Assembly (NCBI GenBank): GCA_963746845.1
Contig: CAVVCZ010000001.1
Coordinates: 288,001 to 352,000 of the forward strand
Direction of reading: 5' to 3'
Length of the DNA stretch: 64,000 nt
Origin: an uncultured Chloroflexia bacterium
GTDB taxonomy: Bacteria; Chloroflexota; Limnocylindria; Limnocylindrales; CSP1-4
A program made the position numbers and the translations under genes. Under the pieces are notes generated by a model that made no database searches, was not told where the DNA came from, and worked only from the letters and a program-made list of their open reading frames with translations. The number at the start of each line of letters is the position of its first letter. The first letter of the stretch is position 1. Of the stretch, positions 19,759 through 36,802 are shown one piece after another.

Positions 19759-21969
19759 TCAGGTTCCTGCCGCCGGTGCCGACGCCGGCCCGTCGACGCT
19801 CGCGGGCTGAACCGGGCGGACCAACGGTGCGGCCGCCGAACCGGCTCCGACCGCAGCAGCCGGTGGCTGTTCCGCATCGAACAGGTGGAGCACCGTCCGC
19901 CATGTCTTCGCGACGATCCCGAGGACCGGGATGATCATCACCATGCCGACGATGCCGGCGATCGCGCCGCCCGCGGGGATCGCCAGCAGCACGACGGCGG
20001 GGTGGATGCTGACCGTCTTGCCGTAGACGAGCGGGGTCACGATGTTGCCCTGGACGATATTGAAGACGATCGTGAAGATCCCCATCAGGACGATGTCCGT
20101 CGTCGATCCGACCGCCACCGCGACGAGGAAGCCGAGCAACGTCCCGATCGCCCCGCCGATGTACGGGATGAACCCGAGGATGAAGCTCAGCACGCCGATC
20201 GGGAACGCGAGGGGCAGGCCGAGGATGAACATCGTCAGCCACTGCATGACCCCGCCCGAGAGTGACACGATCGCCGTCCCGACCATGGAGCTGTAGAGCG
20301 TCGACGCCGACTGCGTCCCGACGTCGTCGACCCGATCACGGCGGTCGAGCGGAACGACGCGCAGGAATGTCGCCCACCATGCCGCGCCGTCGCGGAGGAA
20401 GTAGAACGTCAGCAGGAGCGAGATCGTCAGGGCGATCACGAGCCCGGCCGTGTTCGCGACGATCACGGCCAGGTTCGAGGCCAGCCCGCCGACGAGCGCA
20501 TGGACGAGAGCTGCCGGGGTGGTGCCGAGGCTGAGGCGACCGGCGCCGTCTGCCGCCGTGCTCTCGATCTCTGGCAGGGACGCGACCATCGTCAGGATCG
20601 TGACGACCAGCACGAGGACCACGACCGCCACGCTGGCGATCGTCACGAGCGCGGGTGCGGCGTTCGCCCCCAGGCCGCGTTGACGGGCGACGCGCACGAG
20701 CGGGCGGAGGACCACCGCGAAGATGAGCGCGAGGATCAGGGGCAGGCTGAAGAGTGGCTGAAGGATGAGAGCAATCACGACCGCGAGGAGCCCAAGGACC
20801 ACCAGTGCCCGCCAGCTGAACTGGCCCATCCGATCGAGCCAGACCGGCACGAGGGCGTTGGTGGGCGCCGCTTGCGTTCGCGTGCCGAGGACCTCGACGA
20901 TCGCGGGCGCGAACGCCTGCAGCGCGGTCAGGACCGGGACGGCGGCGAACAGTCCGACGAACCCGAACAGGGCGCCTGCGGCAGGGATCGCGATGAGGGC
21001 GAGGCCCGGGTTGACCCGCGTTCCTGCGCCGTAGACGCGAGGTGCGAGGAACTGCCGCTCAAGGATGTTCGTGACGCCGACGAGCGCGAGGAAGGCGCCG
21101 GCGGCAAGGAACCCCTGCGTGCCGACCGTGATGAGGGTGATCACCGTCGCGCTGAACAGTCCCCCGAGGTACGGAACGAACGCGGCGATGAAGACCACGA
21201 CCGCCAGCGGACCTGCGAACGGCACGCCGAGGATCGTCAGGAACACGGCGACCGAGGCCGCATCGGCGACCGCCAACGCGGACGTGCCGCGGAGGTATCC
21301 GCTCAGCTCGTCGAGTGCGACGGTTGCTCGTGCCGTCAGGGCCCGGGCGCGCCAGTCGTCGATGTTGCTGGTGGTCGCCTCCCAGCCCCGGTCGCCATCG
21401 GACAACAGATAGAAGGTCAGGAATCCGCCGAGGATCATGATCGTGACGAAGCTCGCGATCGGGGCGACCAGCTCGGCAATGTTGCTGGCGAGCCAGGTCT
21501 GGAAGTTGTCAGCGATGGCGTTCACGAGATTGGTCAGCCCCGTCGGCGCCCCGAGCTCTGACAGCTTCGCCGACAGGGCAGCCAGCCCTTCCTTGTTGCG
21601 CTGGAGGATGTCGACGACGGCCGGGATGAAGGCGACGACGATCGCCGTCAGGGCGAGAAGCACGAGGCCGACCGCGAGGAAGCTGGCGGCCGCCGCGGCC
21701 CGGCCCCTCGGCCAGCCACGCTCGGTCCGGAGACGGATCACGACCGGGTAGACGAGGGCGGCGACCAGCAGACCGACGAGGATCGCACCGGTCACGGTCG
21801 ACAGGAAGAGCGCGAACCAGCCGATCACCAGGACCAGCGCGAGCGTCACGAGGACCCGCCAGCCGATCGCGGCGAGACGGTCAAGCCAGCTCGGGACGAT
21901 GCCGGATCCCGTCGGCGTTTCGCCCGGATCGGTTTCCGTGGCCGTGATACCTGTCGGGTCGACCGTCAT
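19759..21969 (-). CDS. AI-2E family transporter with two tandem AI-2E domains
   Basis: Two halves starting VPSWLDRLAAIGWR and VPVWLDRMGQFSWR; LTFYLLSDG vs LTFYFLRDG; FVPYLGG vs FIPYIGG. Confidence 0.85.
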   Translation of the reverse strand: MTVDPTGITATETDPGETPTGSGIVPSWLDRLAAIGWRVLVTLALVLVIGWFALFLSTVTGAILVGLLVAALVYPVVIRLRTERGWPRGRAAAAASFLAVGLVLLALTAIVVAFIPAVVDILQRNKEGLAALSAKLSELGAPTGLTNLVNAIADNFQTWLASNIAELVAPIASFVTIMILGGFLTFYLLSDGDRGWEATTSNIDDWRARALTARATVALDELSGYLRGTSALAVADAASVAVFLTILGVPFAGPLAVVVFIAAFVPYLGGLFSATVITLITVGTQGFLAAGAFLALVGVTNILERQFLAPRVYGAGTRVNPGLALIAIPAAGALFGFVGLFAAVPVLTALQAFAPAIVEVLGTRTQAAPTNALVPVWLDRMGQFSWRALVVLGLLAVVIALILQPLFSLPLILALIFAVVLRPLVRVARQRGLGANAAPALVTIASVAVVVLVLVVTILTMVASLPEIESTAADGAGRLSLGTTPAALVHALVGGLASNLAVIVANTAGLVIALTISLLLTFYFLRDGAAWWATFLRVVPLDRRDRVDDVGTQSASTLYSSMVGTAIVSLSGGVMQWLTMFILGLPLAFPIGVLSFILGFIPYIGGAIGTLLGFLVAVAVGSTTDIVLMGIFTIVFNIVQGNIVTPLVYGKTVSIHPAVVLLAIPAGGAIAGIVGMVMIIPVLGIVAKTWRTVLHLFDAEQPPAAAVGAGSAAAPLVRPVQPASVDGPASAPAAGT

Positions 21970-22083
21970 CTGGACTCCTCGCCGGGACCGCCGGTCGGCG
22001 GTCCGAACGCCGCCATCATCGCGGTCGTTGTCCAGTCGCGCCAGTGGTGGCCACCGGTCGGTCGCACCCGGTGGGCCCCGATG

Positions 22084-22866
22084 TCAGTTCCCGAAACCGG
22101 CCTCCACCTCCAGGGCGGTCGGTTCGAACGCGCCGCGCGCGCTCATCAGCTCGCCCTCCTCGAAGTAGATCTCCCGCAGGTCCACCAGGTCGAGGTGGAG
22201 GAACTGGTGGGCACCCGTGACGTGACCTCGGGCGCGGGCGGCCGTGCCGTCGCGAAGCCGCTCCGCGGGCGCGTTCGGGCGGCCCGGAAGGACCACCTCG
22301 ACGCCGCGAGCCAGTTCATCGTCGGACGGCGCCGGGCCCTCGAGGCGGACCGAGAGGAGCTGGTCGAAGTCCGGCGCCTGCCGGATCGTGTGGGCGAGGA
22401 ATCGTTCGCTCCCGCGACCGAACAGGAAGTACGTCAGATCGTCCGGCTTGTCCGCGCCACCGAACCGTGCGGCGAAGACGACCGACCGGATGTCGACGAT
22501 CAGATCGGACAGGGCGTCGATCGCCTCGCCGCCGCGTTCGAGGTGGCCACGGAAGACCGTGGCCCGGAAGGTCGTCCGGGCCGGCGGATCCGGCCGGTAG
22601 AGCGACGACAGGGCGAACTTCTCCGGGAACACGGTGTAGAGGCGCTCGTCCGGGTGCGCGTCGCGCTCGGCCGTCCAGACCGGGACGGCGTCGGCGCCGT
22701 CGCGGGTCAGGCCGACCTCCAGGATGAGCTGGGCGTCGTGCGGCGCCATGAACATCGGCAGATGGGACAGGAAGACCGTGTCGTGGCCCAGGGCGACCAT
22801 GTTGTGACGACCGAAGTCCGCCGGCGGCTCCTCAACGGCGCCGTCGTGGTGGTGACCGTGATCCAT
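22084..22866 (-). CDS. Hypothetical protein with a His-rich N-terminus and an internal two-fold repeat
   Basis: ATG 22866 with GGAGGGG RBS; MDHGHHHD; FLSHLPMFMAPHDAQL vs FLAHTIRQAPDFDQL. Confidence 0.7.
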   Translation of the reverse strand: MDHGHHHDGAVEEPPADFGRHNMVALGHDTVFLSHLPMFMAPHDAQLILEVGLTRDGADAVPVWTAERDAHPDERLYTVFPEKFALSSLYRPDPPARTTFRATVFRGHLERGGEAIDALSDLIVDIRSVVFAARFGGADKPDDLTYFLFGRGSERFLAHTIRQAPDFDQLLSVRLEGPAPSDDELARGVEVVLPGRPNAPAERLRDGTAARARGHVTGAHQFLHLDLVDLREIYFEEGELMSARGAFEPTALEVEAGFGN

Positions 22867-22968
22867 CGTCCCCTCCGCGTGCGCTGGCCTGCTCGGGCGG
22901 ACCCTATCGCCGGCATGTCTGGCCCGCGTCTCGTCGGGACGACCAACGTTGCATCTCGGGTTCACGGC

Positions 22969-22997
22969 TTGCCGCGGATCCCCGTCCCGGGCAGAAT
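22969..22997 (+). promoter_or_regulatory. Sigma70-like promoter for the leader peptide and sulfurtransferase
   Basis: TTGCCG-N17-CAGAAT. Confidence 0.5.
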
Positions 22998-23006
22998 GCC
23001 CCCGCG

Positions 23007-23081
23007 ATGACGCCCACGGAACGCATGGACCAGGGCTGTACCTGTCGCTCCTCTGCCGAGCGGGGTCGGTGCTGTCCCTGA
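23007..23081 (+). CDS. Cys-rich leader peptide MTPTERMDQGCTCRSSAERGRCCP
   Basis: 24 codons with 4 Cys (3 TGT, 1 TGC) between the promoter and a terminator, upstream of a sulfurtransferase. Confidence 0.65.
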   Translation: MTPTERMDQGCTCRSSAERGRCCP

Positions 23082-23112
23082 GCGCGGTCACGACCGCCAA
23101 TGGATGCCCTGG

Positions 23113-23140
23113 GACCCCTGCACGGCAGGGGTCTTTCGTT
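23113..23140 (+). terminator. Intrinsic terminator (attenuator) in the sulfurtransferase leader
   Basis: GACCCCTGC-acg-GCAGGGGTC followed by TTTCGTT, 40 nt before the ATG. Confidence 0.8.
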
Positions 23141-23179
23141 GCCCACGACCTTCCGGACCACAACCCGAGGAACCATCCG

Positions 23180-24529
23180 ATGTCGAGCACCATCTCCGCG
23201 AACGCCCCGACGGTCGTCACCATCGACGCCATCGATCTGCTTCGCCTCCTGTCGGATCCGCGCGTGATCGTGGTCGACACGAGACCGCTGCCATCCTTCA
23301 ACGGCTGGGGGACGGACGAACTGCCGGGCGGACACGTCCCGGGCGCCGTCGCGTTCCCGATCGACTGGCTGCGGTCGGTCGATCAGACCGAGATCGGCCG
23401 GCTCTTCGCGTCGAAGGGGATCGCGCCGGATCGCACGGTCGTCGTCTACGGCGAGCGCGACGGCGACGCGGCGCCTCTTGCCGTCCGCCTGGTCGAGGAC
23501 GGGTTCGGCGACGTCGCCGAGCTCGCGGGTGGCTGGGCCAGCTGGGTCGCTGACCCGGTCCGCCCGGTCGAGTCGCTGCCCAACCATCACCGGCTCGTCC
23601 ATGCCGGCTGGCTCCGGGCCGTCATCGACGGCGACCGGCCGGAGGCGGCGCCGGCTGGTCGGTTCCTCGTCTTCCACGTCAACTTCGGCGTTCCCGAGGA
23701 GTACGCGGAGAACCACCTCCCGGGCGCGCGCTACCTCGACACGAACTGGCTCGAGGATCCGCTCGACTGGAACCGTCGGTCGCCGAAGGAGCTCGACGCG
23801 GCCCTCCGCCACCTCGGCATCACCCACGACACGACGGTGGTCCTGTACGGTCGTGACACCGAGGGCGACGCGGACGAGAAGTGGCCGGGCCGGCGGGCGG
23901 GCCAGATCGCCGCCACACGGGCGGCCCTGATCCTCCGCTACGCCGGCGTCGATGACGTCCGGATCCTGGATGGCGGGTACGACCACTGGGTCCGCGACGG
24001 CAACCCCCTCGAGGAGCGGGTCACCGAGTCGGTGCCGGTCGAGTCGTTCGGGGTGAGCATCCCGCAGCGCCCGGAGCTCATCGTCGACCTCGACGACGCC
24101 AAGGCGATCCTCGCCGATCGCGGCGGGTCGGCCCTGGTCAGCGTCCGGACGTGGCGCGAGCACATCGGCGCGGTCAGCGGCTACAACTACATCGGTCCGG
24201 CCGGTCGGATCGCCGGCGACGTCTGGGGCAACAGCGGATCCGACGCGTACCACATGCAGCACTACCGCACGATCGACAACACGATGCGCGCATACCCGGA
24301 GATCGCCGCAAGCTGGGCGGAGGCGGGCATCACCCCGGACAAGCGGATCGCCTTCTACTGCGGCACGGGCTGGCGAGCGAGCGAAACGTGGTTCTACGCG
24401 TCGCTCATGGGCTGGCCCAACGTGGCCGTCTACGACGGCGGCTGGTTCGAGTGGAGCCAGGATCCGGTCAACAACCCGATCGAGCTGGGTGAGCCCGCCA
24501 CATCGGACGCCGTTCCGGTCCGGCTCTGA
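23180..24529 (+). CDS. Three-domain rhodanese/thiosulfate sulfurtransferase (YnjE-like)
   Basis: GGHVPGA, NHLPGA, FYCGTGWRASE active-site loop, VYDGGWFEWS. Confidence 0.9.
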   Translation: MSSTISANAPTVVTIDAIDLLRLLSDPRVIVVDTRPLPSFNGWGTDELPGGHVPGAVAFPIDWLRSVDQTEIGRLFASKGIAPDRTVVVYGERDGDAAPLAVRLVEDGFGDVAELAGGWASWVADPVRPVESLPNHHRLVHAGWLRAVIDGDRPEAAPAGRFLVFHVNFGVPEEYAENHLPGARYLDTNWLEDPLDWNRRSPKELDAALRHLGITHDTTVVLYGRDTEGDADEKWPGRRAGQIAATRAALILRYAGVDDVRILDGGYDHWVRDGNPLEERVTESVPVESFGVSIPQRPELIVDLDDAKAILADRGGSALVSVRTWREHIGAVSGYNYIGPAGRIAGDVWGNSGSDAYHMQHYRTIDNTMRAYPEIAASWAEAGITPDKRIAFYCGTGWRASETWFYASLMGWPNVAVYDGGWFEWSQDPVNNPIELGEPATSDAVPVRL

Positions 24530-24568
24530 TCCCGCCATCGGACCGAAGCTCGGGCTCCCGACCGCGCC

Positions 24569-25699
24569 CTACGCGACGATGCGCGCGACCGCTCGCAGGT
24601 CCTGCGCGAGGAGTTCGGGGACCTCGGTGGCGGCAAAATGGCCGCCGCGCGGCATGTCCGTCCAGTGCACGAGGTTGAACTGCCGGGCCGCGACCGACCG
24701 GCTCGGGGAGCCCGGCTCATCGCCCGGCATGCGGGCGATGCCGACCGGTGCCACGACCGGGCTCGTCGGTCCCGTCCGACGCGTGTGCCGGTATCGGTAG
24801 TAGGGCAGGAACGACGTGCCGATGCTGTTCGTGAGCCAGTACAGCGTGGCCGTCGCCAGCACCTGGTCCGGCGCGAACGGCGGTCCATCACCGCCGTCGC
24901 GATCGCTCCATGCGCGCCACTTCTCCACGATCCACGCGGCGAGCCCTGCGGGTGAGTCATTCAGGCCGACCGCGAGCGTCTGTGGCTTCGTACCCTGGAT
25001 GTCGCCGTAGGCGCTCTCCTCGCGTTCCCACGCGCGGACCCGACGGAGGTAGGACCGGTCCTCCGGATCCGTCGACGCCCGGGCGAGCCGGTCGTCGGAC
25101 CAGTCCGTGGTGAGGTGGATCCCGAGCACGGCCTCGGGGTGGCGTCGCGCGATCGAGATCGTGACGCCGGCACCGATGTCACCGCCATGCGCGATGAATC
25201 GGTCGTAGCCCAGGACGTCGCGCATCAGCTCGACCCACAGCTCGGCGAGCGCGAACGGCGATCGACCGTCCGAGGCCGGGGCGGGCGAGAAGCCGTAGCC
25301 GGGCATCGACGGCACGACGACGTCGAACGACAGGCCGTCGAGATCGTTCGTCAGCCGCGGCAGGATGTCGAGCATCTCCAGGAATGAGCTCGGCCAGCCG
25401 TGGGTCATCAGGAGCGGGATCGAGTCCGGCCCGGCTCCCTTCACGTGGACGAAGTGGACCGGCCGGTCGCCCAGCAGGGCCGTGAAGTTCGGCACGGCGG
25501 CGATCCGGCTCTCCACGGCGCGCCAGTCGAAGTCGGTGGCCCAGTGACGGACCAGTCCGGCGAGATAGTCGTGCTCGACGCCGTAGTCCCAGCCGGACCC
25601 GAGCGGGGCCGGGAGGCGGGTGGCGCCGAGCCTCCGGCGCAGGTCGTCCAGGTCGTCTTCGGCGGCGCGGTAGGTGAAGGGCTGCGGGATGGACGTCAC
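24569..25699 (-). CDS. Epoxide hydrolase (EHN family)
   Basis: LDDLRRRL, HGWPSSFLE, PSMPGYGFS, HGGDIGA, LNDSPAGLAAWIVEK, GGHFAATEVP. Confidence 0.92.
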   Translation of the reverse strand: MTSIPQPFTYRAAEDDLDDLRRRLGATRLPAPLGSGWDYGVEHDYLAGLVRHWATDFDWRAVESRIAAVPNFTALLGDRPVHFVHVKGAGPDSIPLLMTHGWPSSFLEMLDILPRLTNDLDGLSFDVVVPSMPGYGFSPAPASDGRSPFALAELWVELMRDVLGYDRFIAHGGDIGAGVTISIARRHPEAVLGIHLTTDWSDDRLARASTDPEDRSYLRRVRAWEREESAYGDIQGTKPQTLAVGLNDSPAGLAAWIVEKWRAWSDRDGGDGPPFAPDQVLATATLYWLTNSIGTSFLPYYRYRHTRRTGPTSPVVAPVGIARMPGDEPGSPSRSVAARQFNLVHWTDMPRGGHFAATEVPELLAQDLRAVARIVA

Positions 25700-25797
25700 G
25701 GCGAATCCCCTGGCTCGTTGCCTTGGATGAACACGAGTTATGCGACGTTAGAGGTGTTTCACCGAGACGTCAACTGGTTATTGCGTGATACTGGTGT

Positions 25798-26382
25798 CTG
25801 TCATGCGGCACGCTCACTGAGGCCCAGCGCCTCGTCGACTTCGTCAACACGGAGGACCTCCGGCGTCCCGATCGCCGAGAGCCGCCGTTCGGACCCGACG
25901 AGGGGCTCGACGATCCCGGGGCGCTCGACCACTGGCTGGCCGAGCACGAGCTCGGGGATGGAGGTGGCGCCCGCCAGGACGACCTCGACCTCGCGCGACG
26001 GCTCCGGACCGCGCTCCGCGGCGTGCTGCGACGCGACGGGAGGGTCGTCCCTGCCGAGGCGACCCTGGTGAACGACGTCGCCCGCGAGCTCCCGCTGATC
26101 ATTCGCGTCGACGGTGCTGCGCGCCCGGTCGCCGAGCCCGTGTCCGATGGGCCGCGCGGCGCGTTGACGCGGCTGCTCGCGGATCTCCTGCTGCTCCGCG
26201 ACGCCGGCGAGCTCGACCGGTTGAAGGCATGCGCGGCCGACGATTGTCGGTGGGCGTTCGTCGATCGCTCACGCCCGGGCATCGGACGGTGGTGCTCGTC
26301 GACCGCGTGCGGCAATCGCGACAAGACGCGCCGGTATCGGGGGAGCCGGCGACCGTCTACGAAAGGGTCTCGTACAGGTTGA
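25798..26382 (+). CDS. CGNR zinc finger / ABATE domain regulator; start codon problematic
   Basis: RLVDFVNT, RLKACAADDCRWAFVDRSRPGIGRWCSSTACGNRDKTRRYR; only a CTG in frame, ATG 25803 is one base out of frame. Confidence 0.78.
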   Translation: MSCGTLTEAQRLVDFVNTEDLRRPDRREPPFGPDEGLDDPGALDHWLAEHELGDGGGARQDDLDLARRLRTALRGVLRRDGRVVPAEATLVNDVARELPLIIRVDGAARPVAEPVSDGPRGALTRLLADLLLLRDAGELDRLKACAADDCRWAFVDRSRPGIGRWCSSTACGNRDKTRRYRGSRRPSTKGSRTG

Positions 26383-26776: not shown

Positions 26777-29700
26777 TCAGCGGTCGCCCGGTCGGCGGCG
26801 AATGATGACGGCGGCGCCGAAGCCCGAGATCAGCACCAGCGTGAGGATGACGGCCCACGCCGTCGTCGCCCGGACCGGTCCGAACGGCGTCCCGAGGATC
26901 GGATCCGCGTCCGTCTGGGGGATGGCGGCGTTCACCGTGATCGTCAGCGTCGCGTCGTCGCACAGGGCGGGATCGTTCGGGCTGCAGATCCGGTACGTCA
27001 CCTGGTCCAGACCGCTGAACCCGGCGGCAGGCGTGTAGATGATCGATCCGATCGTCGCCGTCCCGTGGGCCGGACCGACGACGATCTGGGGCGTTCCGGC
27101 GTCGCCGATGTCGTTCGCCTCGACGTCGACCTCGACCGTCTGGCCCGCGCTCGTGACATCCGCGTCGTCGACGGCGACCGGGAAGACCGCGACGTTGACG
27201 GTGCCCATCGCGCAGGCGGGGATCGCGTTGTCGTCGCAGCCCTCGATGGTGAACCCGTCCTGACCCGTGAACGTGCCGGTCGGCGTGTAGGTGAACGAGC
27301 CGTCCTGGGCGATCGAGACGGTGCCGTGGGCGGGCGCGGTCGAGACCGTCAGCGTGACCGTCTGGCCGGTGTCCGGATCGGTGACCGTGACCGCACCGGA
27401 GACCGGCACCGTCGCGTCGGTCTCGACCGCGGCGTCACCGACGATCGGCGGCGTGTTGCCGACCGTGAACGTCCCGGGCACGTACGTGATCGTGTAGTTG
27501 GCGAGGCCGGTCCCGACCGCGGCCGAGATGGTGATCGGGTACGTGCCCGGTGCCGCCAGGGCCGGAGCTCCCGCGCTGGCCAGGATCGCCGCCGCGACCG
27601 AGTCCGCGTTGTGCAGGCCGGCGACGGAGAACTCCGTGCCGTCGAAGACGAAGAGGATGCCAAACGGCTTCGACTGGTCGTTGGCGGTGATCGTGAGCGG
27701 CGCCGGGTTGACCGTCAGGGCTCCCGGGACGTAGCTGATCGTGTAGTTCCCGAGCCCGGTCCCGAGCGCGGCCGACGGCGTGATCGGGTACGGGCTGCCG
27801 GCGACCGTCGCGGTCGGCGCGGCACCCGCGCTCGCGAGGGTCACGCTCGTGACGGTGTCGGTCCCGAGCAGGCCGCTCGTCGTGAACTCGGTCCCCGCGA
27901 ACACGACCGTCTGGCCGTACGTCTTGGTCCGGTCGTCGGCGGTGATCGTGAGCGGCGCCGGGTCGATCTCGTCGATGACCGTGCCCGCGTCGGCGAGGTA
28001 GTTGCCGGCCGGGTCGCTGAACGTCCACGGGTCGACCGTCGTGCCGACCGCGGTCCGGGTCGTGGCCGACAGGTCGAGCCCGGCGCTGAGGTCCTCGCCG
28101 AGGACGCCCGTGGCGGTCCCGGTCGCGGTGTGGGGCAGGGCGTCGTAGGTGACGCTGTAGCCGGTCACGACGATGACCGCGACCGCCGGGTCGACGGTGA
28201 GCGTGCCCGGGACGTAGCCGATCGTGTAGTTCCCGAGCCCGGTCCCGACCGCGGCCGAGATGGTGATCGGGTACGGGCTGCCCGCGACGGTCGCGGTCGC
28301 GATCGCGCCCGGGCTGGCCAGGCTGACGCTCGTGACGGTGTCCGTGTTGAGCAGGCCGCTCGTCGTGAACTCGGTCCCCGCGAACACGACCGTCTGGCCG
28401 TACGTCTTGGTCCGGTCGTTGGCGGTGATCGTGAGCGGCGCCGGGTTGACCGTCAGGGCTCCCGGGACGTAGCTGATCGTGTAGTTCCCGAGCCCGGTCC
28501 CGAGCGCGGCCGACGGCGTGATCGGGTACGGGCTGCCGGCGACCGTCGCGGTCGGCGCGGCACCCGCGCTCGCGAGGGTCACGCTCGTGACGGTGTCGGT
28601 CCCGAGCAGGCCGCTCGTCGTGAACTCGGTCCCCGCGAACACGACCGTCTGGCCGTACGTCTTGGTCCGGTCGTCGGCGGTGATCGTGAGCGGCGCCGGG
28701 TCGATCTCGTCGATGACCGTGCCCGCGTCGGCGAGGTAGTTGCCGGCCGGGTCGCTGAACGTCCACGGGTCGACCGTCGTGCCGACCGCGGTCCGGGTCG
28801 TGGCCGACAGGTCGAGCCCGGCGCTGAGGTCCTCGCCGAGGACGCCCGTGGCGGTCCCGGTCGCGGTGTGGGGCAGGGCGTCGTAGGTGACGCTGTAGCC
28901 GGTCACGACGATGACCGCGACCGCCGGGTCGACGGTGAGCGTGCCCGGGACGTAGCCGATCGTGTAGTTCCCGAGCCCGGTCCCGACCGCGGCCGAGATG
29001 GTGATCGGGTACGGGCTGCCCGCGACGGTCGCGGTCGCGATCGCGCCCGGGCTGGCCAGGCTGACGCTCGTGACGGTGTCCGTGTTGAGCAGGCCGCTCG
29101 TCGTGAACTCGGTCCCCGCGAACACGACCGTCTGGCCGTACGTCTTGGTCCGGTCGTTGGCGGTGATCGTGAGCGGCGCCGGGTTGACCGTCAGGGCTCC
29201 CGGGACGTAGCTGATCGTGTAGTTCCCGAGCCCGGTCCCGAGCGCGGCCGACGGCGTGATCGGGTACGGGCTGCCGGCGACCGTCGCGGTCGGCGCGGCA
29301 CCCGCGCTCGCGAGGGTCACGCTCGTGACGGTGTCGGTCCCGAGCAGGCCGCTCGTCGTGAACTCGGTCCCCGCGAACACGACCGTCTGGCCGTACGTCT
29401 TGGTCCGGTCGTCGGCGGTGATCGTGAGCGGCGCCGGGTCGATCTCGTCGATGACCGTGCCCGCGTCGGCGAGGTAGTTGCCGGCCGGGTCGCTGAACGT
29501 CCACGGGTCGACCGTCGTGCCGACCGCGGTCCGGGTCGTGGCCGACAGGTCGAGCCCGGCGCTGAGGTCCTCGCCGAGGACGCCCGTGGCGGTCCCGGTC
29601 GCGGTGTGGGGCAGGGCGTCGTAGGTGACGCTGTAGCCGGTCACGACGATGACCGCGACCGCCGGGTCGACGGTGAGCGTGCCCGGGACGTAGCCGATCG

Positions 29701-32700
29701 TGTAGTTCCCGAGCCCGGTCCCGACCGCGGCCGAGATGGTGATCGGGTACGGGCTGCCCGCGACGGTCGCGGTCGCGATCGCGCCCGGGCTGGCCAGGCT
29801 GACGCTCGTGACGGTGTCCGTGTTGAGCAGGCCGCTCGTCGTGAACTCGGTCCCCGCGAACACGACCGTCTGGCCGTACGTCTTGGTCCGGTCGTTGGCG
29901 GTGATCGTGAGCGGCGCCGGGTTGACCGTCAGGGCTCCCGGGACGTAGCTGATCGTGTAGTTCCCGAGCCCGGTCCCGAGCGCGGCCGACGGCGTGATCG
30001 GGTACGGGCTGCCGGCGACCGTCGCGGTCGGCGCGGCACCCGCGCTCGCGAGGGTCACGCTCGTGACGGTGTCGGTCCCGAGCAGGCCGCTCGTCGTGAA
30101 CTCGGTCCCCGCGAACACGACCGTCTGGCCGTACGTCTTGGTCCGGTCGTCGGCGGTGATCGTGAGCGGCGCCGGGGTCACGTCGAACGATGCGCTCGTC
30201 GCGCCGATGAGCCCGGCGCTCGAGCTCTGGAGCTGGTACGTGCCGACCTGATCGACCGCGAGGTTCCCGAACGTGGCGATGCCGTTCACCGCCGCGACCG
30301 TGAGCGTCCCACCGAGGGTCGGCCCGGCCGGCGTCAGGGCCAGGGTCACCGAGGCGCTGCTCTCGGTCACGACGAGTCCGTTGTCGTCGAGGATCGCGAC
30401 CGTCACGGCCGGGCTCATCGTCGAGCGGTAGACGGTGTTCGTCGGCCCCTGCTGGAACGCGAGGTGGGTCGCCCGATTCCAGGTGACCGTGTTGTCCGCC
30501 GAGGTGGAGACGGTGTTGGGGTTGCCGGCGAGGTCGGTCGCGACCCCGGCACCGATCGACGCGATCACGGTGCCCGAGGTGGTCATCCCGGTGACCGCCA
30601 CGTTGAACGTGGTCGGACCGCCGGTCACGGTGCCGGTCTTCACGCCGCCCGAGGTCCCACCGATCGTCACGTCGCCCGTCGCGAACCCGGTCACGGGCTC
30701 ACTGAAGGTCACCGTGAAGTTGATCGGGCTGGCATTGGTCGGATCCGCCTGGCCAATCGCCTGGTTGATCGCGACGGTCGGGGCGACCACGTCCCAGGTG
30801 ACCGTGTTGTCGACCGAGGTCGACGCGACGTTGTTGTTGCCGGCGGCATCGGTCGCCCGATTGGCCGCCATCGACGCGATCACGGTCCCGGAGGTCGTCA
30901 TCCCGGTGACGGCCACGTTGTACGTCGTGGGGCCGCCCGTCACGGTCCCGACGAGCACCCCGCCGGCGGTCCCGCCCAGGGTGACGTCCCCGGTCGCGAA
31001 GCCGATCACCGGCTCGCTGAAGACGACGGTGAAGTTGATCGGGCTGGCGTTGGTCGGATCTGGCTGAGCAGCCGCCTGGTTGATCGTCACGGTCGGCGCG
31101 ACGTTGTCCCAGGTGACCGTGTTGTCTGCCGAGGTGGAGGCGGCGTTGTTGTTGCCGGCCGGGTCGGTCGCGACGCTCGCGCCGAGTGACGCGACGACCG
31201 TGCCCGGGGTCGTCATCCCGGTGACCGCGACGTTGTACGTCGTGGGGCCGCCGGTGACGGTGCCGGTGAGGGCCCCGCCGACCGTGCTGCCGGTGAAGCT
31301 GACGTCACCGGTCGCGAAGCCGATCACCGGCTCGCTGAAGACGACGGTGAAGTTGATCGGGCTGGCGTTGGTCGGATCGGGCTGAGCAGCCGCCTGGTTG
31401 ATCGTCACGGTCGGCGCGACGTTGTCCCAGGTGACCGTGTTGTCCGCCGAGGTGGAGACGGTGTTGGGGTTGCCGGCGAGGTCGGTCGCGACCCCGGCAC
31501 CGATCGACGCGATCACGGTGCCCGAGATCGTCATCCCGGTGACCGCCACGGTGTACACGGTCGGGCCGCCGGTCACGGTGCCGGTCTTCACGCCGCCCGA
31601 GGTCCCGCCGATCGTCACGTCGCCCGTGGCGAAGCCGGTCACGGGCTCGCTGAAGGTGACCGTGTAGTTGATCGGGCTGGTGTTGGTCGGATCCGCCTGG
31701 CCGATCGCCTGGTTGATCGTGACGGTCGGGGCGGTCCGGTCGATCGTGACCGTCGGTCCGTCCGTCTGGGCGTTGTTGTTCCCGGCGGCGTCGGTGACGG
31801 CGTTGACCCGGATCCGCAGGATGACCGTCCCCGCGCCACAGCCGGTGAGGGTGACGGTGTACGCGGCAGCGGCACCGGCCGGGGCGCCGATCACGCAGCC
31901 GGCCGCGGTCCCGACGTTCGAGAGGTCGTTGGCCAGGAAGCCGGCAACGCTCTCGCTCCACGTCACGTCGAAGACGAGGGTGGCGGCGTTGGTGATGTCG
32001 TCGCTGTTCGACGCGCCGGTGTCGGAGCCGGCCTGGAGGTCGATGACGGCGGTCGGCGCGACGTTGTCCCAGGTGACCGTGTTGTCGACCGAGGTCGAGG
32101 CGGCGTTGTTGTTGCCGGCCGGGTCGGTCGCGACGCCGGCGCCGAGCGACGCGATGACCGTGCCCGGGGTGGTCATCCCGGTGACCGCCACGTTGAACAC
32201 GGTCGGGCCGCCGGTCACGGTGCCGGTCTTCACCCCGCCCGACGTCCCGCCGATCGTCACGTCACCGGTCGCGAAGCCGACGACGGCCTCGCTGAACGTC
32301 ACGGTGAAGTTGATCGGACTCGTCCCGGTCGGATCGACCTGGGCGGCGGCCTGGTTGATCGTGACGGTCGGCGCGACGACATCCCAGGTGACGGTGTTGT
32401 CGGCCGAGGTCGACGCCGCGTTGTTGTTGCCGGCGAGATCGGTCGCGACCGACGCCGCGATCGTGGCGGTCACGGTCCCCGAGGTGGTCATCCCGGTGAC
32501 CGCCACGGTGTACACGGTCGGGCCGCCGGTCACGGTGCCGGTCTTCACCCCGCCCGAGGTCCCGCCGATCGTCACGTCGCCCGTGGCGAAGCCGGTCACG
32601 GGCTCGCTGAAGGTGACCGTGTAGTTGATCGGGCTGGTGTTGGTCGGATCCGCCTGGCCGACCGCCTGGTTGATCGTGACGGTCGGGGCGACGTTGTCCC

Positions 32701-35700
32701 AGGTGACCGTGTTGTCCGTGGAGGTCGAGGCGACGTTGTTGTTGCCCGCGAGGTCGGTCGCCCGGGCCGCCGCGATCGTGGCGATGACGGTGCCCGAGGT
32801 CGTCATGCCCGTGACCGCGACGTTGAAGACCGTGGGTCCCCCGGTGACGGTCCCGGTCTTGCCGCCACCCGCGGTGCCCGCGAAGGTCACGTCGCCGGTC
32901 GCGAAGCCGATCACCGGCTCGCTGAACGTCACGGTGTAGTTGATCGGGCTGGTGTTGGTCGGATCGGGCTGAGCCGCGGCCTGGTTGATCGTGACGGTCG
33001 GCGCCACGTTGTCCCAGGTGACCGTGTTGTCGACCGAGGTCGAGGCGGCGTTGTTGTTGCCGGCCGGGTCGGTCGCGACGCCGGCGCCGAGCGACGCGAT
33101 GACCGTGCCCGGGGTGGTCATCCCGGTGACCGCCACGTTGAACACGGTCGGGCCGCCGGTCACGGTGCCGGTCTTCACCCCGCCCGACGTCCCGCCGATC
33201 GTCACGTCACCGGTCGCGAAGCCGACGACGGCCTCGCTGAACGTCACGGTGAAGTTGATCGGACTCGTCCCGGTCGGATCGACCTGGGCGGCGGCCTGGT
33301 TGATCGTGACGGTCGGCGCGACGACATCCCAGGTGACGGTGTTGTCGGCCGAGGTCGACGCCGCGTTGTTGTTGCCGGCGAGATCGGTCGCGACCGACGC
33401 CGCGATCGTGGCGGTCACGGTCCCCGAGGTGGTCATCCCGGTGACCGCCACGGTGTACACGGTCGGGCCGCCGGTCACGGTGCCGGTCTTCACGCCGCCC
33501 GAGGTCCCGCCGATCGTCACGTCGCCCGTGGCGAAGCCGGTCACGGGCTCGCTGAAGGTGACCGTGTAGTTGATCGGGCTGGTGTTGGTCGGATCCGCCT
33601 GGCCGACCGCCTGGTTGATCGTGACGGTCGGGGCGACGTTGTCCCAGGTGACCGTGTTGTCCGTGGAGGTCGAGGCGACGTTGTTGTTGCCCGCGAGGTC
33701 GGTCGCCCGGGCCGCCGCGATCGTGGCGATGACGGTGCCCGAGGTCGTCATGCCCGTGACCGCGACGTTGAAGACCGTGGGTCCCCCGGTGACGGTCCCG
33801 GTCTTGCCGCCACCCGCGGTGCCCGCGAAGGTCACGTCGCCGGTCGCGAAGCCGATCACCGGCTCGCTGAACGTCACGGTGTAGTTGATCGGGCTGGTGT
33901 TGGTCGGATCGGGCTGAGCCGCGGCCTGGTTGATCGTGACGGTCGGCGCCACGTTGTCCCAGGTGACCGTGTTGTCGACCGAGGTCGAGGCGGCGTTGTT
34001 GTTGCCGGCCGGGTCGGTCGCGACGCCGGCGCCGAGCGACGCGATGACCGTGCCCGGGGTGGTCATCCCGGTGACCGCCACGTTGAACACGGTCGGGCCG
34101 CCGGTCACGGTGCCGGTCTTCACCCCGCCCGACGTCCCGCCGATCGTCACGTCACCGGTCGCGAAGCCGACGACGGCCTCGCTGAACGTCACGGTGAAGT
34201 TGATCGGACTCGTCCCGGTCGGATCGACCTGGGCGGCGGCCTGGTTGATCGTGACGGTCGGCGCGACGACATCCCAGGTGACGGTGTTGTCGGCCGAGGT
34301 CGACGCCGCGTTGTTGTTGCCGGCGAGATCGGTCGCGACCGACGCCGCGATCGTGGCGGTCACGGTCCCCGAGGTGGTCATCCCGGTGACCGCCACGGTG
34401 TACACGGTCGGGCCGCCGGTCACGGTGCCGGTCTTCACGCCGCCCGAGGTCCCGCCGATCGTCACGTCGCCCGTGGCGAAGCCGGTCACGGGCTCGCTGA
34501 AGGTGACCGTGTAGTTGATCGGGCTGGTGTTGGTCGGATCCGCCTGGCCGACCGCCTGGTTGATCGTGACGGTCGGGGCGACGTTGTCCCAGGTGACCGT
34601 GTTGTCGGTCGAGGTGGACGCCGCGTTCGGATTTCCGCCTGCGTCCGTCGCGACGCCGGCGCCGAGCGACGCCACGACCGTGCCCGGGGTGGTCATCCCG
34701 GTGACCGCGACGTTGAAGACCGCGGGTCCGCCTGTGACGGTCCCGGTCTTCACCCCGCCCGAGGTCCCGCCGATCGTGACGTCGCCGGTCGCGAAGCCGA
34801 CCGCGTTCTCGCTGAAGGTGACGGTGAAGTTGATCGGGCTGGTCCGGGCGGGATCCACCTGGGCTGCCGCCTGGTTGATCGTGACCGTCGGGGCCACGCT
34901 GTCGACCGTCGTGTTCACCTGGTTCGACGTCACGCTGGCGCCACCGCAGTTGCCCGTGCACGTCGCCGCGGCGGTGTTGGAGTACACCGTCCCGTCCGTC
35001 GCTCCGCCGGGAACCGTGACCGGGATGGTGACCGTGTAGGTGGCGTTGTTCGCCGGCCCGGTCAGGGTGCATGACACGTTGTTGCCCACCGTCGCCGCAC
35101 AGCTCGACGCGCCGCTCGAGCCGACCCCGCTCACAATTCCGACGGTCAGAGGGCCGGGCACGGCGTCGGTGATGGTGATGTTGCCCTGGTTGCCGTTGCC
35201 GGTGACCCGCAGGGTGTAGCTGAAGCCCGCGCCGGGACTCGTCGTGGCCGGGCCGGACTTCCCGTTGGTGCCGCCGATCCAGGTCACCGCAGCGGCGACA
35301 TATGGCCCGACGAACGGACCGCCCGGGCCCGTTGGTGCGGCGCCGGCCGGCTTCAGCGGATCGCTGCCGTCGTCGGCGGCTGCCTGGGCGAGGTCCAGCC
35401 GGCCGTTGCCCGTCTCGGATCGCGTGCCGACCGGGGCCGCGGAGCGAGCCAGGCGACCCACGATCACGCCGTTGGACGCGCCCGGATCGAGCGCCCGCAG
35501 GAGGGCGGCGGCGCCCGCGACCTCGGCCGACGAGGCCGACGTGCCGCTGATCGACGTCGTGCCGCCGCCCGGCTGGAGGGTCACGATGCCGGTGCCCGGC
35601 GCTCCGAGGAAGGTGTCGGCGCCGTGGTTCGACGAGCCGTCGAGCTGGTCCGCCTCGTTGGTGTTCGACACGCCGATGACGCCGCGGTCGCCGGCCGGGT

Positions 35701-36802
35701 AGGTCGGTGCGCTCGACCCGTCGTTGCCGGTCGCCGCCACGACGACGACGTCGTGAGTCCACGCGTAGTCGATCGCGCTCTGGAGGGCAGCACTGAAGCC
35801 CGGGTTGCTGAACGAGAGGTTGATGACGTTCGCGCCGTGGTCGACCGCCCAGACGACGCCCTCGATGATGTCGCTGTCCTGGCCGAGGCCGTTGGCGTCG
35901 AGGACGGTGACCGGCATGACCTTGACCCCGGCGAAGCCGATGCCGGCGATCCCCTGGCCGTTGTCTGCCGCCGCCGCGATGATCCCCGCCATCGCGGTTC
36001 CGTGGCCGTTCGGGTCGACGGTCGGGTCGCTCCCCGGAAGCAGGCTCGTGCCGGACACCAGACGACCCGCGAGATCCGGATGCGTCGCATCGACGCCGGT
36101 GTCGAGTACCGCGACGACCGACCTGCCCGACGGGTGGGCCGACGCGCGGACCGTGTCCCAGCCGATCAACGGCAGGGACCACTGGGATGGGTATGCTGGA
36201 TCGTCCGGGGCGGCTTCGGCGGAACGCACGCGGTCCAGGTCCACGCGGAGCACGTCGGGGTCGGCGCGCAGCAGGTTGACGACGGTCGAGCCCTCAGGGA
36301 CCCGGACGACGGCCATCCGCAGGGGCGCGATCGTGTCGACCACCTCGGCGCCAGCGGCCGCCAGGATGCTCGCGCGCGCGGAGGCACCCGTGCCCGGCGC
36401 GAAGGTGACGACGTAGTCATCGGTCGCCGGCGACGCGGTCGGTGCGGGCGACGCGGGCGGCGCTGACGGCGGCGACGGCGCCTCGGATTCGGGCGGGTCG
36501 GCCGGGCCGGAGCTCTCGATCGTCGCGGCCGTCGGCGCCGGGGATGGCGCCGCGCTCGGCGTCGCCGGCGATGGCTCGGGCGACGATGGCTCGAGCGACG
36601 GTGGCTCGGGCGACGATGGCTCGGCGGGCTCGTTCGGGGCGGAGCTCGGCGTGCCGGCCGGATCGGCAGAGGCGCTCGCGTCGGGTGCCTGGCCCGGATC
36701 GGCCGCGAGACCGGCGACGGGCGACAGGAGCCAGCCCAGGATCAGGGTGATCTGGAGGAAGGCGAGCAGTCGGTAGCGCGCGCTCGGGGTCCGGTTGGTC
36801 AA
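26777..36802 (-). CDS. Giant (~3340 aa) secreted S8 subtilase-adhesin: signal peptide, Pro-rich linker, prodomain, S8, DUF11-like, ~14 Ig-like repeats, ~8 MBG-like repeats, two Ig (Big_9-like) domains, sortase-like C-terminus
   Basis: VAVLDTGVD, HGTAMAG, AATGNDG, SGTSASSA; PTVTINQA..DPTN.SPIN.TVTFSE repeats; APLTITA.DRTKTYG repeats; IPQTD-TM-RRRPGDR tail; start re-called to TTG 36802. Confidence 0.88.
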   Translation of the reverse strand: MTNRTPSARYRLLAFLQITLILGWLLSPVAGLAADPGQAPDASASADPAGTPSSAPNEPAEPSSPEPPSLEPSSPEPSPATPSAAPSPAPTAATIESSGPADPPESEAPSPPSAPPASPAPTASPATDDYVVTFAPGTGASARASILAAAGAEVVDTIAPLRMAVVRVPEGSTVVNLLRADPDVLRVDLDRVRSAEAAPDDPAYPSQWSLPLIGWDTVRASAHPSGRSVVAVLDTGVDATHPDLAGRLVSGTSLLPGSDPTVDPNGHGTAMAGIIAAAADNGQGIAGIGFAGVKVMPVTVLDANGLGQDSDIIEGVVWAVDHGANVINLSFSNPGFSAALQSAIDYAWTHDVVVVAATGNDGSSAPTYPAGDRGVIGVSNTNEADQLDGSSNHGADTFLGAPGTGIVTLQPGGGTTSISGTSASSAEVAGAAALLRALDPGASNGVIVGRLARSAAPVGTRSETGNGRLDLAQAAADDGSDPLKPAGAAPTGPGGPFVGPYVAAAVTWIGGTNGKSGPATTSPGAGFSYTLRVTGNGNQGNITITDAVPGPLTVGIVSGVGSSGASSCAATVGNNVSCTLTGPANNATYTVTIPVTVPGGATDGTVYSNTAAATCTGNCGGASVTSNQVNTTVDSVAPTVTINQAAAQVDPARTSPINFTVTFSENAVGFATGDVTIGGTSGGVKTGTVTGGPAVFNVAVTGMTTPGTVVASLGAGVATDAGGNPNAASTSTDNTVTWDNVAPTVTINQAVGQADPTNTSPINYTVTFSEPVTGFATGDVTIGGTSGGVKTGTVTGGPTVYTVAVTGMTTSGTVTATIAASVATDLAGNNNAASTSADNTVTWDVVAPTVTINQAAAQVDPTGTSPINFTVTFSEAVVGFATGDVTIGGTSGGVKTGTVTGGPTVFNVAVTGMTTPGTVIASLGAGVATDPAGNNNAASTSVDNTVTWDNVAPTVTINQAAAQPDPTNTSPINYTVTFSEPVIGFATGDVTFAGTAGGGKTGTVTGGPTVFNVAVTGMTTSGTVIATIAAARATDLAGNNNVASTSTDNTVTWDNVAPTVTINQAVGQADPTNTSPINYTVTFSEPVTGFATGDVTIGGTSGGVKTGTVTGGPTVYTVAVTGMTTSGTVTATIAASVATDLAGNNNAASTSADNTVTWDVVAPTVTINQAAAQVDPTGTSPINFTVTFSEAVVGFATGDVTIGGTSGGVKTGTVTGGPTVFNVAVTGMTTPGTVIASLGAGVATDPAGNNNAASTSVDNTVTWDNVAPTVTINQAAAQPDPTNTSPINYTVTFSEPVIGFATGDVTFAGTAGGGKTGTVTGGPTVFNVAVTGMTTSGTVIATIAAARATDLAGNNNVASTSTDNTVTWDNVAPTVTINQAVGQADPTNTSPINYTVTFSEPVTGFATGDVTIGGTSGGVKTGTVTGGPTVYTVAVTGMTTSGTVTATIAASVATDLAGNNNAASTSADNTVTWDVVAPTVTINQAAAQVDPTGTSPINFTVTFSEAVVGFATGDVTIGGTSGGVKTGTVTGGPTVFNVAVTGMTTPGTVIASLGAGVATDPAGNNNAASTSVDNTVTWDNVAPTAVIDLQAGSDTGASNSDDITNAATLVFDVTWSESVAGFLANDLSNVGTAAGCVIGAPAGAAAAYTVTLTGCGAGTVILRIRVNAVTDAAGNNNAQTDGPTVTIDRTAPTVTINQAIGQADPTNTSPINYTVTFSEPVTGFATGDVTIGGTSGGVKTGTVTGGPTVYTVAVTGMTISGTVIASIGAGVATDLAGNPNTVSTSADNTVTWDNVAPTVTINQAAAQPDPTNASPINFTVVFSEPVIGFATGDVSFTGSTVGGALTGTVTGGPTTYNVAVTGMTTPGTVVASLGASVATDPAGNNNAASTSADNTVTWDNVAPTVTINQAAAQPDPTNASPINFTVVFSEPVIGFATGDVTLGGTAGGVLVGTVTGGPTTYNVAVTGMTTSGTVIASMAANRATDAAGNNNVASTSVDNTVTWDVVAPTVAINQAIGQADPTNASPINFTVTFSEPVTGFATGDVTIGGTSGGVKTGTVTGGPTTFNVAVTGMTTSGTVIASIGAGVATDLAGNPNTVSTSADNTVTWNRATHLAFQQGPTNTVYRSTMSPAVTVAILDDNGLVVTESSASVTLALTPAGPTLGGTLTVAAVNGIATFGNLAVDQVGTYQLQSSSAGLIGATSASFDVTPAPLTITADDRTKTYGQTVVFAGTEFTTSGLLGTDTVTSVTLASAGAAPTATVAGSPYPITPSAALGTGLGNYTISYVPGALTVNPAPLTITANDRTKTYGQTVVFAGTEFTTSGLLNTDTVTSVSLASPGAIATATVAGSPYPITISAAVGTGLGNYTIGYVPGTLTVDPAVAVIVVTGYSVTYDALPHTATGTATGVLGEDLSAGLDLSATTRTAVGTTVDPWTFSDPAGNYLADAGTVIDEIDPAPLTITADDRTKTYGQTVVFAGTEFTTSGLLGTDTVTSVTLASAGAAPTATVAGSPYPITPSAALGTGLGNYTISYVPGALTVNPAPLTITANDRTKTYGQTVVFAGTEFTTSGLLNTDTVTSVSLASPGAIATATVAGSPYPITISAAVGTGLGNYTIGYVPGTLTVDPAVAVIVVTGYSVTYDALPHTATGTATGVLGEDLSAGLDLSATTRTAVGTTVDPWTFSDPAGNYLADAGTVIDEIDPAPLTITADDRTKTYGQTVVFAGTEFTTSGLLGTDTVTSVTLASAGAAPTATVAGSPYPITPSAALGTGLGNYTISYVPGALTVNPAPLTITANDRTKTYGQTVVFAGTEFTTSGLLNTDTVTSVSLASPGAIATATVAGSPYPITISAAVGTGLGNYTIGYVPGTLTVDPAVAVIVVTGYSVTYDALPHTATGTATGVLGEDLSAGLDLSATTRTAVGTTVDPWTFSDPAGNYLADAGTVIDEIDPAPLTITADDRTKTYGQTVVFAGTEFTTSGLLGTDTVTSVTLASAGAAPTATVAGSPYPITPSAALGTGLGNYTISYVPGALTVNPAPLTITANDQSKPFGILFVFDGTEFSVAGLHNADSVAAAILASAGAPALAAPGTYPITISAAVGTGLANYTITYVPGTFTVGNTPPIVGDAAVETDATVPVSGAVTVTDPDTGQTVTLTVSTAPAHGTVSIAQDGSFTYTPTGTFTGQDGFTIEGCDDNAIPACAMGTVNVAVFPVAVDDADVTSAGQTVEVDVEANDIGDAGTPQIVVGPAHGTATIGSIIYTPAAGFSGLDQVTYRICSPNDPALCDDATLTITVNAAIPQTDADPILGTPFGPVRATTAWAVILTLVLISGFGAAVIIRRRPGDR
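27676..30176. repeat. Intragenic tandem repeat, 738-bp unit, about 3.4 copies, apparently identical
   Basis: Same sequence recurs at 27676, 28414, 29152 and 29890; identical antisense ORFs at 738-bp spacing. Confidence 0.95.
32061..34606. repeat. Intragenic tandem repeat, 945-bp unit (three 315-bp Ig domains), about 2.7 copies, near-identical
   Basis: Antisense ORFs repeat at 32625/33570/34515 and 32985/33930; only rare synonymous differences seen. Confidence 0.93.

Follow-up and report, generated by a model that had tools for sequence, protein, structure and literature searches.

Classical leader-peptide attenuators control the trp, his, leu, thr, and pheA operons of enterobacteria. In these systems, a short open reading frame (ORF) rich in codons for the sensed amino acid precedes an antiterminator and an intrinsic terminator that have one strand in common; when the ribosome stalls at the regulatory codons the antiterminator is favored, whereas its arrival at the stop codon favors the terminator. 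The leu leader uses a rare synonymous codon as its sensor. Cysteine is not among the amino acids sensed by these operons. Here, we describe a candidate cysteine-responsive leader located upstream of a rhodanese sulfurtransferase gene in a 64,000-nt stretch, hereafter called the window, of contig CAVVCZ010000001.1 (positions 288,001 to 352,000) from an uncultured Chloroflexia bacterium, and its homologues in related genomes. The leader possesses the short ORF rich in Cys codons, the strand shared by antiterminator and terminator, and, in the proposed mechanism, the two alternative ribosome positions of the classical systems, and its preference for UGU resembles the codon choice of the leu leader. 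It differs from them in belonging to the phylum Chloroflexota, in having a rhodanese gene as target, and in being, as predicted from the promoter, near-leaderless without a Shine-Dalgarno sequence; no conserved 1:2 pairing was established. Furthermore, the stop codon lies within the 5' strand of the antiterminator, so that the translating ribosome itself would act as the anti-antiterminator, unlike in the classical cases. We consider it about 80% probable that the element is a leader-peptide attenuator of transcription, mediated by the ribosome and responsive to charged tRNA-Cys.

Cysteine is seldom sensed by leader-peptide attenuators, the published cases found being translational attenuators in mycobacteria, candidates without terminators in Actinobacteria, and one predicted motif in Rhodobacterales. 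In mycobacteria, leaderless Cys-rich small ORFs (sORFs) such as Ms5788A of M. smegmatis form a 'Cys ribulon', in which pausing at Cys codons relieves repression at low cysteine (10.1101/834739). These sORFs were selected by the presence of at least two consecutive Cys codons, and the operon of Ms5788A includes cysA2, encoding a putative thiosulfate sulfurtransferase; Canestrari et al. considered attenuation for cysteine by an upstream ORF previously undescribed (10.1101/834739). Control of Ms5788 is translational, with a stable duplex hiding the ribosome-binding site (RBS) (10.1101/834739). The Chloroflexota leaders resemble them in being unannotated Cys-rich sORFs, with a predicted near-leaderless start, that precede sulfur or cysteine genes, including a sulfurtransferase gene. 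However, no sequence similarity is shared by the two groups, the mycobacterial runs of consecutive Cys codons are replaced by CxC plus a distal Cys, and in the Chloroflexota family the RBS is free and an intrinsic terminator provides the read-out. Thus, the mycobacterial precedent named in a first-pass annotation of the window holds as a functional likeness, but neither for the mechanism nor for the sequence.

The motif uORFC-8-2, located before cysS in Rhodobacterales, has been predicted to be a ribosome-mediated transcription attenuator by Brewer et al. in 2021 (PMC8632094). Like the Chloroflexota family, it has a conserved AUG, Cys codons, and a terminator stem followed by a U-run; it differs in that its Cys codons are in tandem at positions 14-15 with UGC dominant, whereas UGU dominates in Chloroflexota, in that its target is cysteinyl-tRNA synthetase in alpha-proteobacterial hosts, and in its unrelated sequence and structure (PMC8632094). 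Candidate Cys leader peptides have also been reported before cys and cbs operons of Actinobacteria by Seliverstov et al. in 2005 (PMC1262725). These are likewise short ORFs upstream of cysteine-metabolism genes, with runs of Cys codons near the stop codon, but they lack conserved terminator hairpins and Rho-dependent termination was suggested (PMC1262725), whereas the Chloroflexota element has a clear and conserved terminator/antiterminator. No prior description of a Chloroflexota Cys leader family was found in the open-access literature searched.

Conservation of the leader ORF and its cysteine codons

Relatives of the rhodanese were searched with one genome taken per species, which gave 80 loci sharing 64-80% identity. 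Most were labelled Chloroflexia, Limnocylindrales, or Chloroflexota, the others Gaiellaceae, Actinomycetes, or Dormiibacterota, and two had no upstream sequence. In the 400 nt upstream of the gene, a short ORF with at least 3 Cys was observed on the gene strand in 56 of 79 cases (78 loci plus the window) and on the opposite strand in 22 of 79; most of those on the gene strand were recognizably homologous, with the ending CxC-x(3-5)-AEQGRWC-x-stop. Thirty-nine leaders were aligned (alignments A1 and A2), a structure was derived, and a covariance model, R1, was built from them. Directly upstream of the gene and on its strand, R1 matched 48 of the 80 loci as well as the window, each at E <= 2e-7, which gives 49 leaders. 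The labels of the 48 loci were Chloroflexota of some rank in 46 and Verrucomicrobiia in 2, and the element was absent from the 17 loci labelled Actinomycetota and the 2 labelled Dormiibacterota.

In the genome to which the window belongs (3.56 Mb, 92% complete), the R1 element was present in a single copy. Among 151 genomes of the same class, the rhodanese gene was detected in 13 (E <= 1e-100) and the element in 12 of these 13, always directly upstream of the gene at a distance of no more than about 150 nt; none of the 138 genomes lacking the gene contained it. The genes flanking the window locus were not found within 2 kb of the rhodanese gene in any of the 80 loci. Since the element accompanies the gene this closely while the flanking genes are not conserved, the leader and the rhodanese gene travel as a unit.

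The family has a uniform arrangement. From 5' to 3', a -35 sequence (cTTGc), a spacer of 17-18 nt, and a -10 sequence (tGgCA.AAT) are followed, mostly after 9 nt, by an ATG without a Shine-Dalgarno sequence. The ORF of 20-29 codons consists of 7-12 unconserved C/A-rich codons, TGY-nnn-TGT, about five spacer codons, and GCC-GAG-CAG-GGC-AGG-TGG-TGT-nnn-stop. The stop codon is followed by a hairpin (H), a linker often containing CACC, and a terminator composed of (G)ACCCCTGC, a loop, GCAGGGGT(C/T), and a T-run, and 20-80 nt separate the terminator from the gene start. The -35/-10 pair kept its distance to the ATG in 46 of 48 leaders, with the end of the -10 sequence 7-10 nt (mostly 9) before the ATG. 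Because the promoter position is fixed relative to the ATG, the transcript should start 0-3 nt before it.

The reading frame was examined from the second Cys codon, with the ATG expected 24-48 nt upstream and the stop codon 30-54 nt downstream. An in-frame ATG was present in 48 of 49 leaders, a conserved stop codon also in 48, and both in 47. A pattern blind to the frame, TTG-N3-N17-18-NANNNT-N7-10-ATG, matched 47 of the 49 leaders, and the ATG it located was in frame with the Cys codons in 46 of these 47, at distances of 27, 30, 33, or 36 nt, where one third would be in frame by chance. Judged from these sequences, the leader ORF is clearly under reading-frame constraint. Two leaders deviated: L052 (1853-1964) has no in-frame ATG, and in L044 (1851-1967) the frame is shifted by a single-base difference within a stretch of C, producing CCCC (TGT TGC TGT TGC) and an ORF running through the terminator. 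Either could be a homopolymer assembly error or a real variant.

CxC or CC was present in 47 of 48 leader peptides, which contain on average 3.6 Cys per 24 residues. CxC is the conserved motif of the family, while CC occurs in some members only, including the window with TGC-TGT at codons 22-23. The second Cys codon was 96-100% conserved at each position and is unpaired in the model. With L044 and L052 excluded, the leaders contained 123 TGT and 45 TGC, versus 3 TGT and 96 TGC in the rhodanese genes of the same loci, i.e. a UGU share of 73% versus 3%, with a Fisher probability of 4e-33 that is overstated because the lineages are related. The genome of the window has one tRNA-Cys, with anticodon GCA, so UGU is read by G:U wobble. 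Such a difference in codon use suggests that the choice of codon belongs to the sensor, and a rare UGU codon probably sharpens the response.

The N-terminal parts of the leaders are also rich in His, Thr, and Arg, with stretches such as THHH and RHHAHH (L077:1844-1864 among the examples), and His makes up 12.6% of N-terminal leader residues versus 2.3% in the rhodanese. Sensing of His was considered and rejected: the +2 frame is equally rich (15% His), and the common codon CAC accounts for 44 of 49 His codons. The richness thus resembles a nucleotide bias toward C and A more than a second sensor. When no ribosome is placed on the L077 leader, the predicted fold joins CACCACCAC to GGTGGTG of the antiterminator strand, and this pairing could act as an anti-antiterminator.

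In the window (Table 1), the promoter hexamers match 8 of 12 consensus positions, and the position of the -10 hexamer implies a 5' untranslated region of about 0-3 nt. The ORF contains Cys codons TGT (23037-39), TGT (23043-45), TGC (23070-72), and TGT (23073-75), i.e. 4 of 24 codons. Over 1486 long ORFs of the same genome, 11.8% of the Cys codons are TGT, and with this share binomial arithmetic gives a chance of about 0.006 for three TGT among four. The core of the terminator consists of GACCCCTGC (23113-23121), the loop ACG, and GCAGGGGTC (23125-23133), followed by TTTCGTT (23134-23140); its z score was -3.61 and 0 of 200 shuffled sequences were as stable. The promoter TTGCCG-N17-CAGAAT, the near-leaderless 24-codon ORF with four Cys, the unusual use of TGT, and the terminator had all been read from the sequence in the first-pass annotation, and each was borne out in the window and, as described above and below, across the family. 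The GAGGA of the rhodanese gene is located about 30 nt past the terminator, outside the alternative folds, and GAGGA or GGGA motifs of a similar kind are visible in the rhodanese orthologs inspected.

Several loci carry other upstream sequences. Degenerate versions of the leader were observed in L016 (~445-523), where the ORF is gone while promoter and hairpin/terminator remain (R1 E 0.04), in L074, which has the promoter and an ATG ORF free of Cys but no terminator, in L017, where the promoter abuts the gene, and in L020, where TGT-TGT is preceded by ATC replacing ATG. A second, unrelated-looking leader precedes the same gene in the Chloroflexota-labelled loci L032 (~1794-1895), L065 (same layout), L003, and L006; its GTG or ATG start directly follows a TAGGGT-like -10 sequence, a GC-rich hairpin and T-run come next, and the peptide reads V/M-I-A-H/R-R-x-S-R-D-M-C-x-C-W-R-P-R-H..., with one Cys left in L006. 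It may be an independent or a strongly diverged Cys leader. Orthologues without the leader, labelled Gaiellaceae or Actinomycetes (L005, L024, L027, L031, L034, L040, L042, L047, L053, L069, L072, L073, and L078), share an AT-rich box similar to TAGTCGCTTTACTTTGTAAACTAATG that lies 20-60 nt upstream of the gene and may serve another regulatory system as operator or promoter. A palindromic box, TTGACTAT...ATAGTCAA, was observed in L019 and L048, and yet another box in L036 and L061. Within the genome of the window, a screen for Cys-rich sORFs followed by a terminator gave 15 candidates, of which two besides the leader were inspected and rejected; those at C2 135027 and C1 381393 did not look intergenic and lacked promoter or leader features, the C1 one being inside a 475-codon ORF.

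Alternative RNA structures and the proposed switch

When cut before the 3' arm of the terminator, each leader is predicted to form a single long hairpin, the antiterminator, which measures about 65 nt and encloses the stop codon. Three helices were distinguished. In P1, GCAGGG, which spans the third base of the Glu codon, all of the Gln codon, and two bases of the codon for Gly, pairs with CCCTGC of the terminator arm; in P2, GG/GGT of the Arg-Trp codons pairs with ACC/CC in the linker; P3, corresponding to hairpin H, has the stop codon in its 5' strand. RNAalifold applied to the MAFFT alignment A1 recovered only the terminator and a 3-bp stem and was insufficient, because the region after the stop codon is too poorly aligned; the antiterminator structure was therefore set by hand from single-sequence folds and the leaders were realigned with the covariance model. 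In the resulting alignment A4, which is model-based, fitted to the structure under test, and hence favors it, P1 was paired in 96.6% of cells and P3 in 76%, with compensatory changes at 8 of the 11 pairs of P3, and the covariation score was 0.154, compared with 0.106 in shuffles (reached by 0 of 500) and at most 0.061 in controls with slid partners. The terminator stem was paired in 94.8% of cells over the 49 leaders. In the window, the pairing of GGGGTC (23062-23067) with GACCCC (23113-23118) that had been taken as the antiterminator occurs in the predicted fold of 23056-23124, but these 6 bp are only a part of the longer hairpin with its covarying apical stem.

The position of the ribosome was represented by truncated folds of the 39 leaders of A1. 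With the ribosome at either Cys codon, the terminator 5' arm was predicted to pair with the 3' part of the ORF in 39 of 39 leaders (mean -38 kcal/mol); with the ribosome at the stop codon, the same pairing was predicted in 0 of 39 (mean -6 kcal/mol), the arm having another partner in 5 of 39. In the window, a ribosome with the second Cys codon (23043) in the A site would cover the transcript to about 23055, while the antiterminator begins at 23057. A ribosome whose A site holds the stop codon would cover about 23064-23093, a stretch that includes the bulk of P1, P2, and the H 5' strand. The geometry of these models fits the proposal of the first-pass annotation that stalling at the first Cys codons would free the antiterminator.

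We infer the start of transcription, the stalling, the termination, and the direction and ligand of the response as follows. Transcription from the promoter would begin at the ATG of the 24-codon ORF or no more than about 3 nt away from it. When cysteine is scarce, the first ribosome would stall at UGU-x-UGU with its 3' edge just short of the antiterminator, whose two strands would fold together with the hairpin after the stop codon, permitting read-through into the sulfurtransferase gene. When cysteine is plentiful, the ribosome would reach the stop codon within the antiterminator 5' strand and melt it; the terminator 5' arm would then pair with 23125-23135 and transcription would end at the T-tract. 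To judge from the sequences, the leader most likely switches the sulfurtransferase gene on when cysteine is short.

Table 1 Features of the leader locus in the window
Feature	Position	Strand	Basis
-35-like hexamer TTGCCG	22969-22974	+	Sequence; TTG 17-18 nt 5' of the -10-like hexamer in 46 of 48 aligned leaders
-10-like hexamer CAGAAT	22992-22997	+	17-nt spacer after TTGCCG; ends 9 nt before ATG
Leader ORF MTPTERMDQGCTCRSSAERGRCCP, 24 codons plus TGA	23007-23081	+	Translation of the sequence
Proposed sensor codons TGT-ACC-TGT (Cys11, Cys13)	23037-23045	+	CxC or CC in 47 of 48 leader peptides
Predicted antiterminator 5' strand, within the ORF, including GGGGTC (23062-23067)	23057-23077	+	Folds
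Apical hairpin H (GCGGT/ACCGC), directly after the stop codon	23082-23098	+	Fold -7.1 kcal/mol, z -1.47
Predicted antiterminator 3' strand (linker and terminator 5' arm)	23102-23124	+	Folds
Intrinsic terminator: stem GGGACCCCTGC/GCAGGGGTCTT, loop ACG, T-tract TTTCGTT	23111-23140	+	Fold -19.3 kcal/mol
RBS of the rhodanese gene, GAGGA	23167-23171	+	Read in the sequence; outside the alternative structures
Rhodanese sulfurtransferase gene, EanB/YnjE type, 449 aa	23180-24529	+	Three PF00581 stretches; structure matches
Divergent neighbor, 260 aa, starting MDHGHHHDG	22084-22866	-	ORF

Weighing the attenuator against other explanations

Several observations, in addition to the bias of A4, weigh against this reading. 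The window copy is a divergent member of the family (71 bits versus up to 112) with a weak antiterminator, for which the fold had a z score of only -0.61 and 50 of 200 shuffles were equally good; the fold of its whole leader had a z score of -1.32, and its T-tract is broken (TTTCGTT). Consensus scans of 22500-23600 returned no promoter-like and no terminator-like site, the -35 hexamer being below the threshold of the scan. As several of these single-sequence statistics are weak, the case rests on conservation. Across the family, P2 was paired in only 67% of cells in A4, and P1 showed no compensatory change because both of its strands are nearly invariant; the orthologous leaders provided the conserved Cys codons looked for by the first-pass annotation, and compensatory pairs in the apical helix but not in P1. 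When the 3' segment of the ORF was shuffled, the C-rich arm was still paired in 477 of 780 folds (61%), with a mean of -31.4 kcal/mol versus -37.6 for the native segment, so composition explains much of the antiterminator pairing. Folding with ribosome masks, also suggested at first pass, separated the two states in the truncated folds but gave mixed results at equilibrium: in full-length leaders with the ribosome at the second Cys codon, the mean probability was 0.69 for the terminator versus 0.30 for the antiterminator, and in the window that of the terminator was 1.00. Since the terminator often wins at equilibrium, the switch must be kinetic and co-transcriptional. The third Cys codon, two codons before the stop codon (window 23073-23075; A4 columns 40-42), is TGT in about 90% of leaders and is not explained by attenuation, since a stall there would favor termination. 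The closest solved relative of the enzyme, which we take to be an ergothioneine synthase, is not an obvious enzyme of cysteine biosynthesis. Finally, the sequencing runs containing the region were four soil DNA runs of one study, with no RNA run listed.

The short ORF might instead encode a functional Cys-rich micro-protein, e.g. a metal- or sulfur-binding partner of the rhodanese. In that case cysteine would not be sensed, and the hairpin, as a partial terminator, would determine the proportion of the two products. Such a protein would account for the constrained frame, for the C-terminal half ending in AEQGRWC-x-stop in most homologues, and for the Cys near the C-terminus that attenuation does not explain. 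However, in the 3' half of the ORF the third codon positions were the most conserved (entropy 0.60 versus 0.93 and 0.77), and the Glu codon varied at positions 1-2 (GAG, ATG, GGG, GCG, GTG, AAG, CGG) while its third base, the first of P1, was invariant. Conservation there tracks RNA pairing and not codon position, indicating that the peptide AEQGRWC is mainly a shadow of the RNA helix. In addition, no residue is conserved in the N-terminal half, a peptide that is merely expressed would not be expected to show so strong a bias to the rare TGT codon, and none of four leader peptides matched a Pfam or NCBIfam family at E <= 10. A micro-protein is thus considered unlikely.

An arrest peptide like TnaC, in which the nascent peptide, or the ribosome carrying it, would sense something other than charged tRNA-Cys (e.g. 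a sulfur compound or the redox state) with the same terminator/antiterminator read-out, is rather less probable still. The residues around CxC are unconserved and the motif lies one codon further along the alignment in L026, L033, L037, L046, and L064, so that Cys codons are kept and not nucleotides at fixed columns; the rare-codon bias points to decoding speed, and conservation of the C-terminal half follows the RNA pairing. The architecture would be identical to that of the attenuator, and the conserved Cys and the near-C-terminal Trp could be features of such a peptide.

A riboswitch or protein-binding RNA in which the ORF is incidental appears very improbable, although riboswitch expression platforms are usually laid out in this way, a terminator alternating with a long, conserved hairpin that has internal loops and covariation in its apical stem. 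The ATG keeps a fixed position relative to the promoter, it is in frame in 46 of the 47 pattern matches, length changes occur in multiples of 3, the stop codon is conserved in 48 of 49, and the Cys codons are kept despite a changing nucleotide context. Moreover, in a scan of 21000-26000 against Rfam 15 at E <= 10, the leader matched only mir-6827, a noise match of 17.8 bits versus a gathering score of 80. Least probable of all is the absence of regulation, i.e. a chance ORF accompanied by a terminator that is leaky or belongs to a transcript from upstream, which would agree with the weak folding statistics of the window and the empty consensus scans but not with an arrangement conserved in 49 loci, the coupling to the gene in 12 of 13 versus 0 of 138 genomes, and an upstream gene on the minus strand, which cannot use the leader terminator.

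The downstream enzyme and the possible meaning of the leader family

The predicted 449-aa protein possessed three matches to the Rhodanese domain (PF00581, E 4.9e-37) and the conserved active-site loop CGTGWR. Full-length matches were 6h98_A (E 7.4e-115), 6ktv_A (E ~1e-115), and YnjE 3ipo_A (E 4.5e-93). The first two are listed in the structure table only as 'Sulfurtransferase' and are presumably EanB, the oxygen-independent ergothioneine synthase of Chlorobium limicola. No match to PF10017, the family of the histidine methyltransferases EgtD/EanA, was found in the genome of the window, which is 92% complete. Many EanB-like enzymes have no known function, according to a paper on ergothioneine synthases (PMC9516567).

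The rhodanese gene and the divergent neighbor share an intergenic region of 313 nt. The 260-aa neighbor had no match in Pfam or NCBIfam, and in none of the 80 related loci was it found close to the rhodanese gene. About 2 kb 3' of the rhodanese gene, an ORF of 3422 codons was observed on the minus strand (26777-37045), with a GC content at third codon positions of 0.95, the top value among the ORFs checked.

The principle of the switch is known; new are the family, the phylum, the type of target, and the absence of an Rfam match. The leader family is conserved in dozens of uncultured soil Chloroflexota, its rare-codon signature is unusually clean, and in this poorly studied soil phylum it presents a complete set of promoter, predicted leaderless ORF, antiterminator, and terminator that is invisible to standard annotation. 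Induction by cysteine shortage would fit a role of the rhodanese in sulfur acquisition. As no histidine methyltransferase was found in the genome, it is conceivable, though we hold this tentatively and think it more doubtful than not, that the attenuator marks the 'orphan' EanB-like triple rhodaneses of this clade as enzymes induced by cysteine starvation that acquire or mobilize sulfur (e.g. from polysulfide, thiosulfate, or thio-imidazoles such as ergothioneine) instead of synthesizing ergothioneine; that UGU is a selected tuning of the sensor; and that, taken with the unrelated Cys leaders of mycobacteria, such control of rhodaneses may have arisen independently in several phyla.

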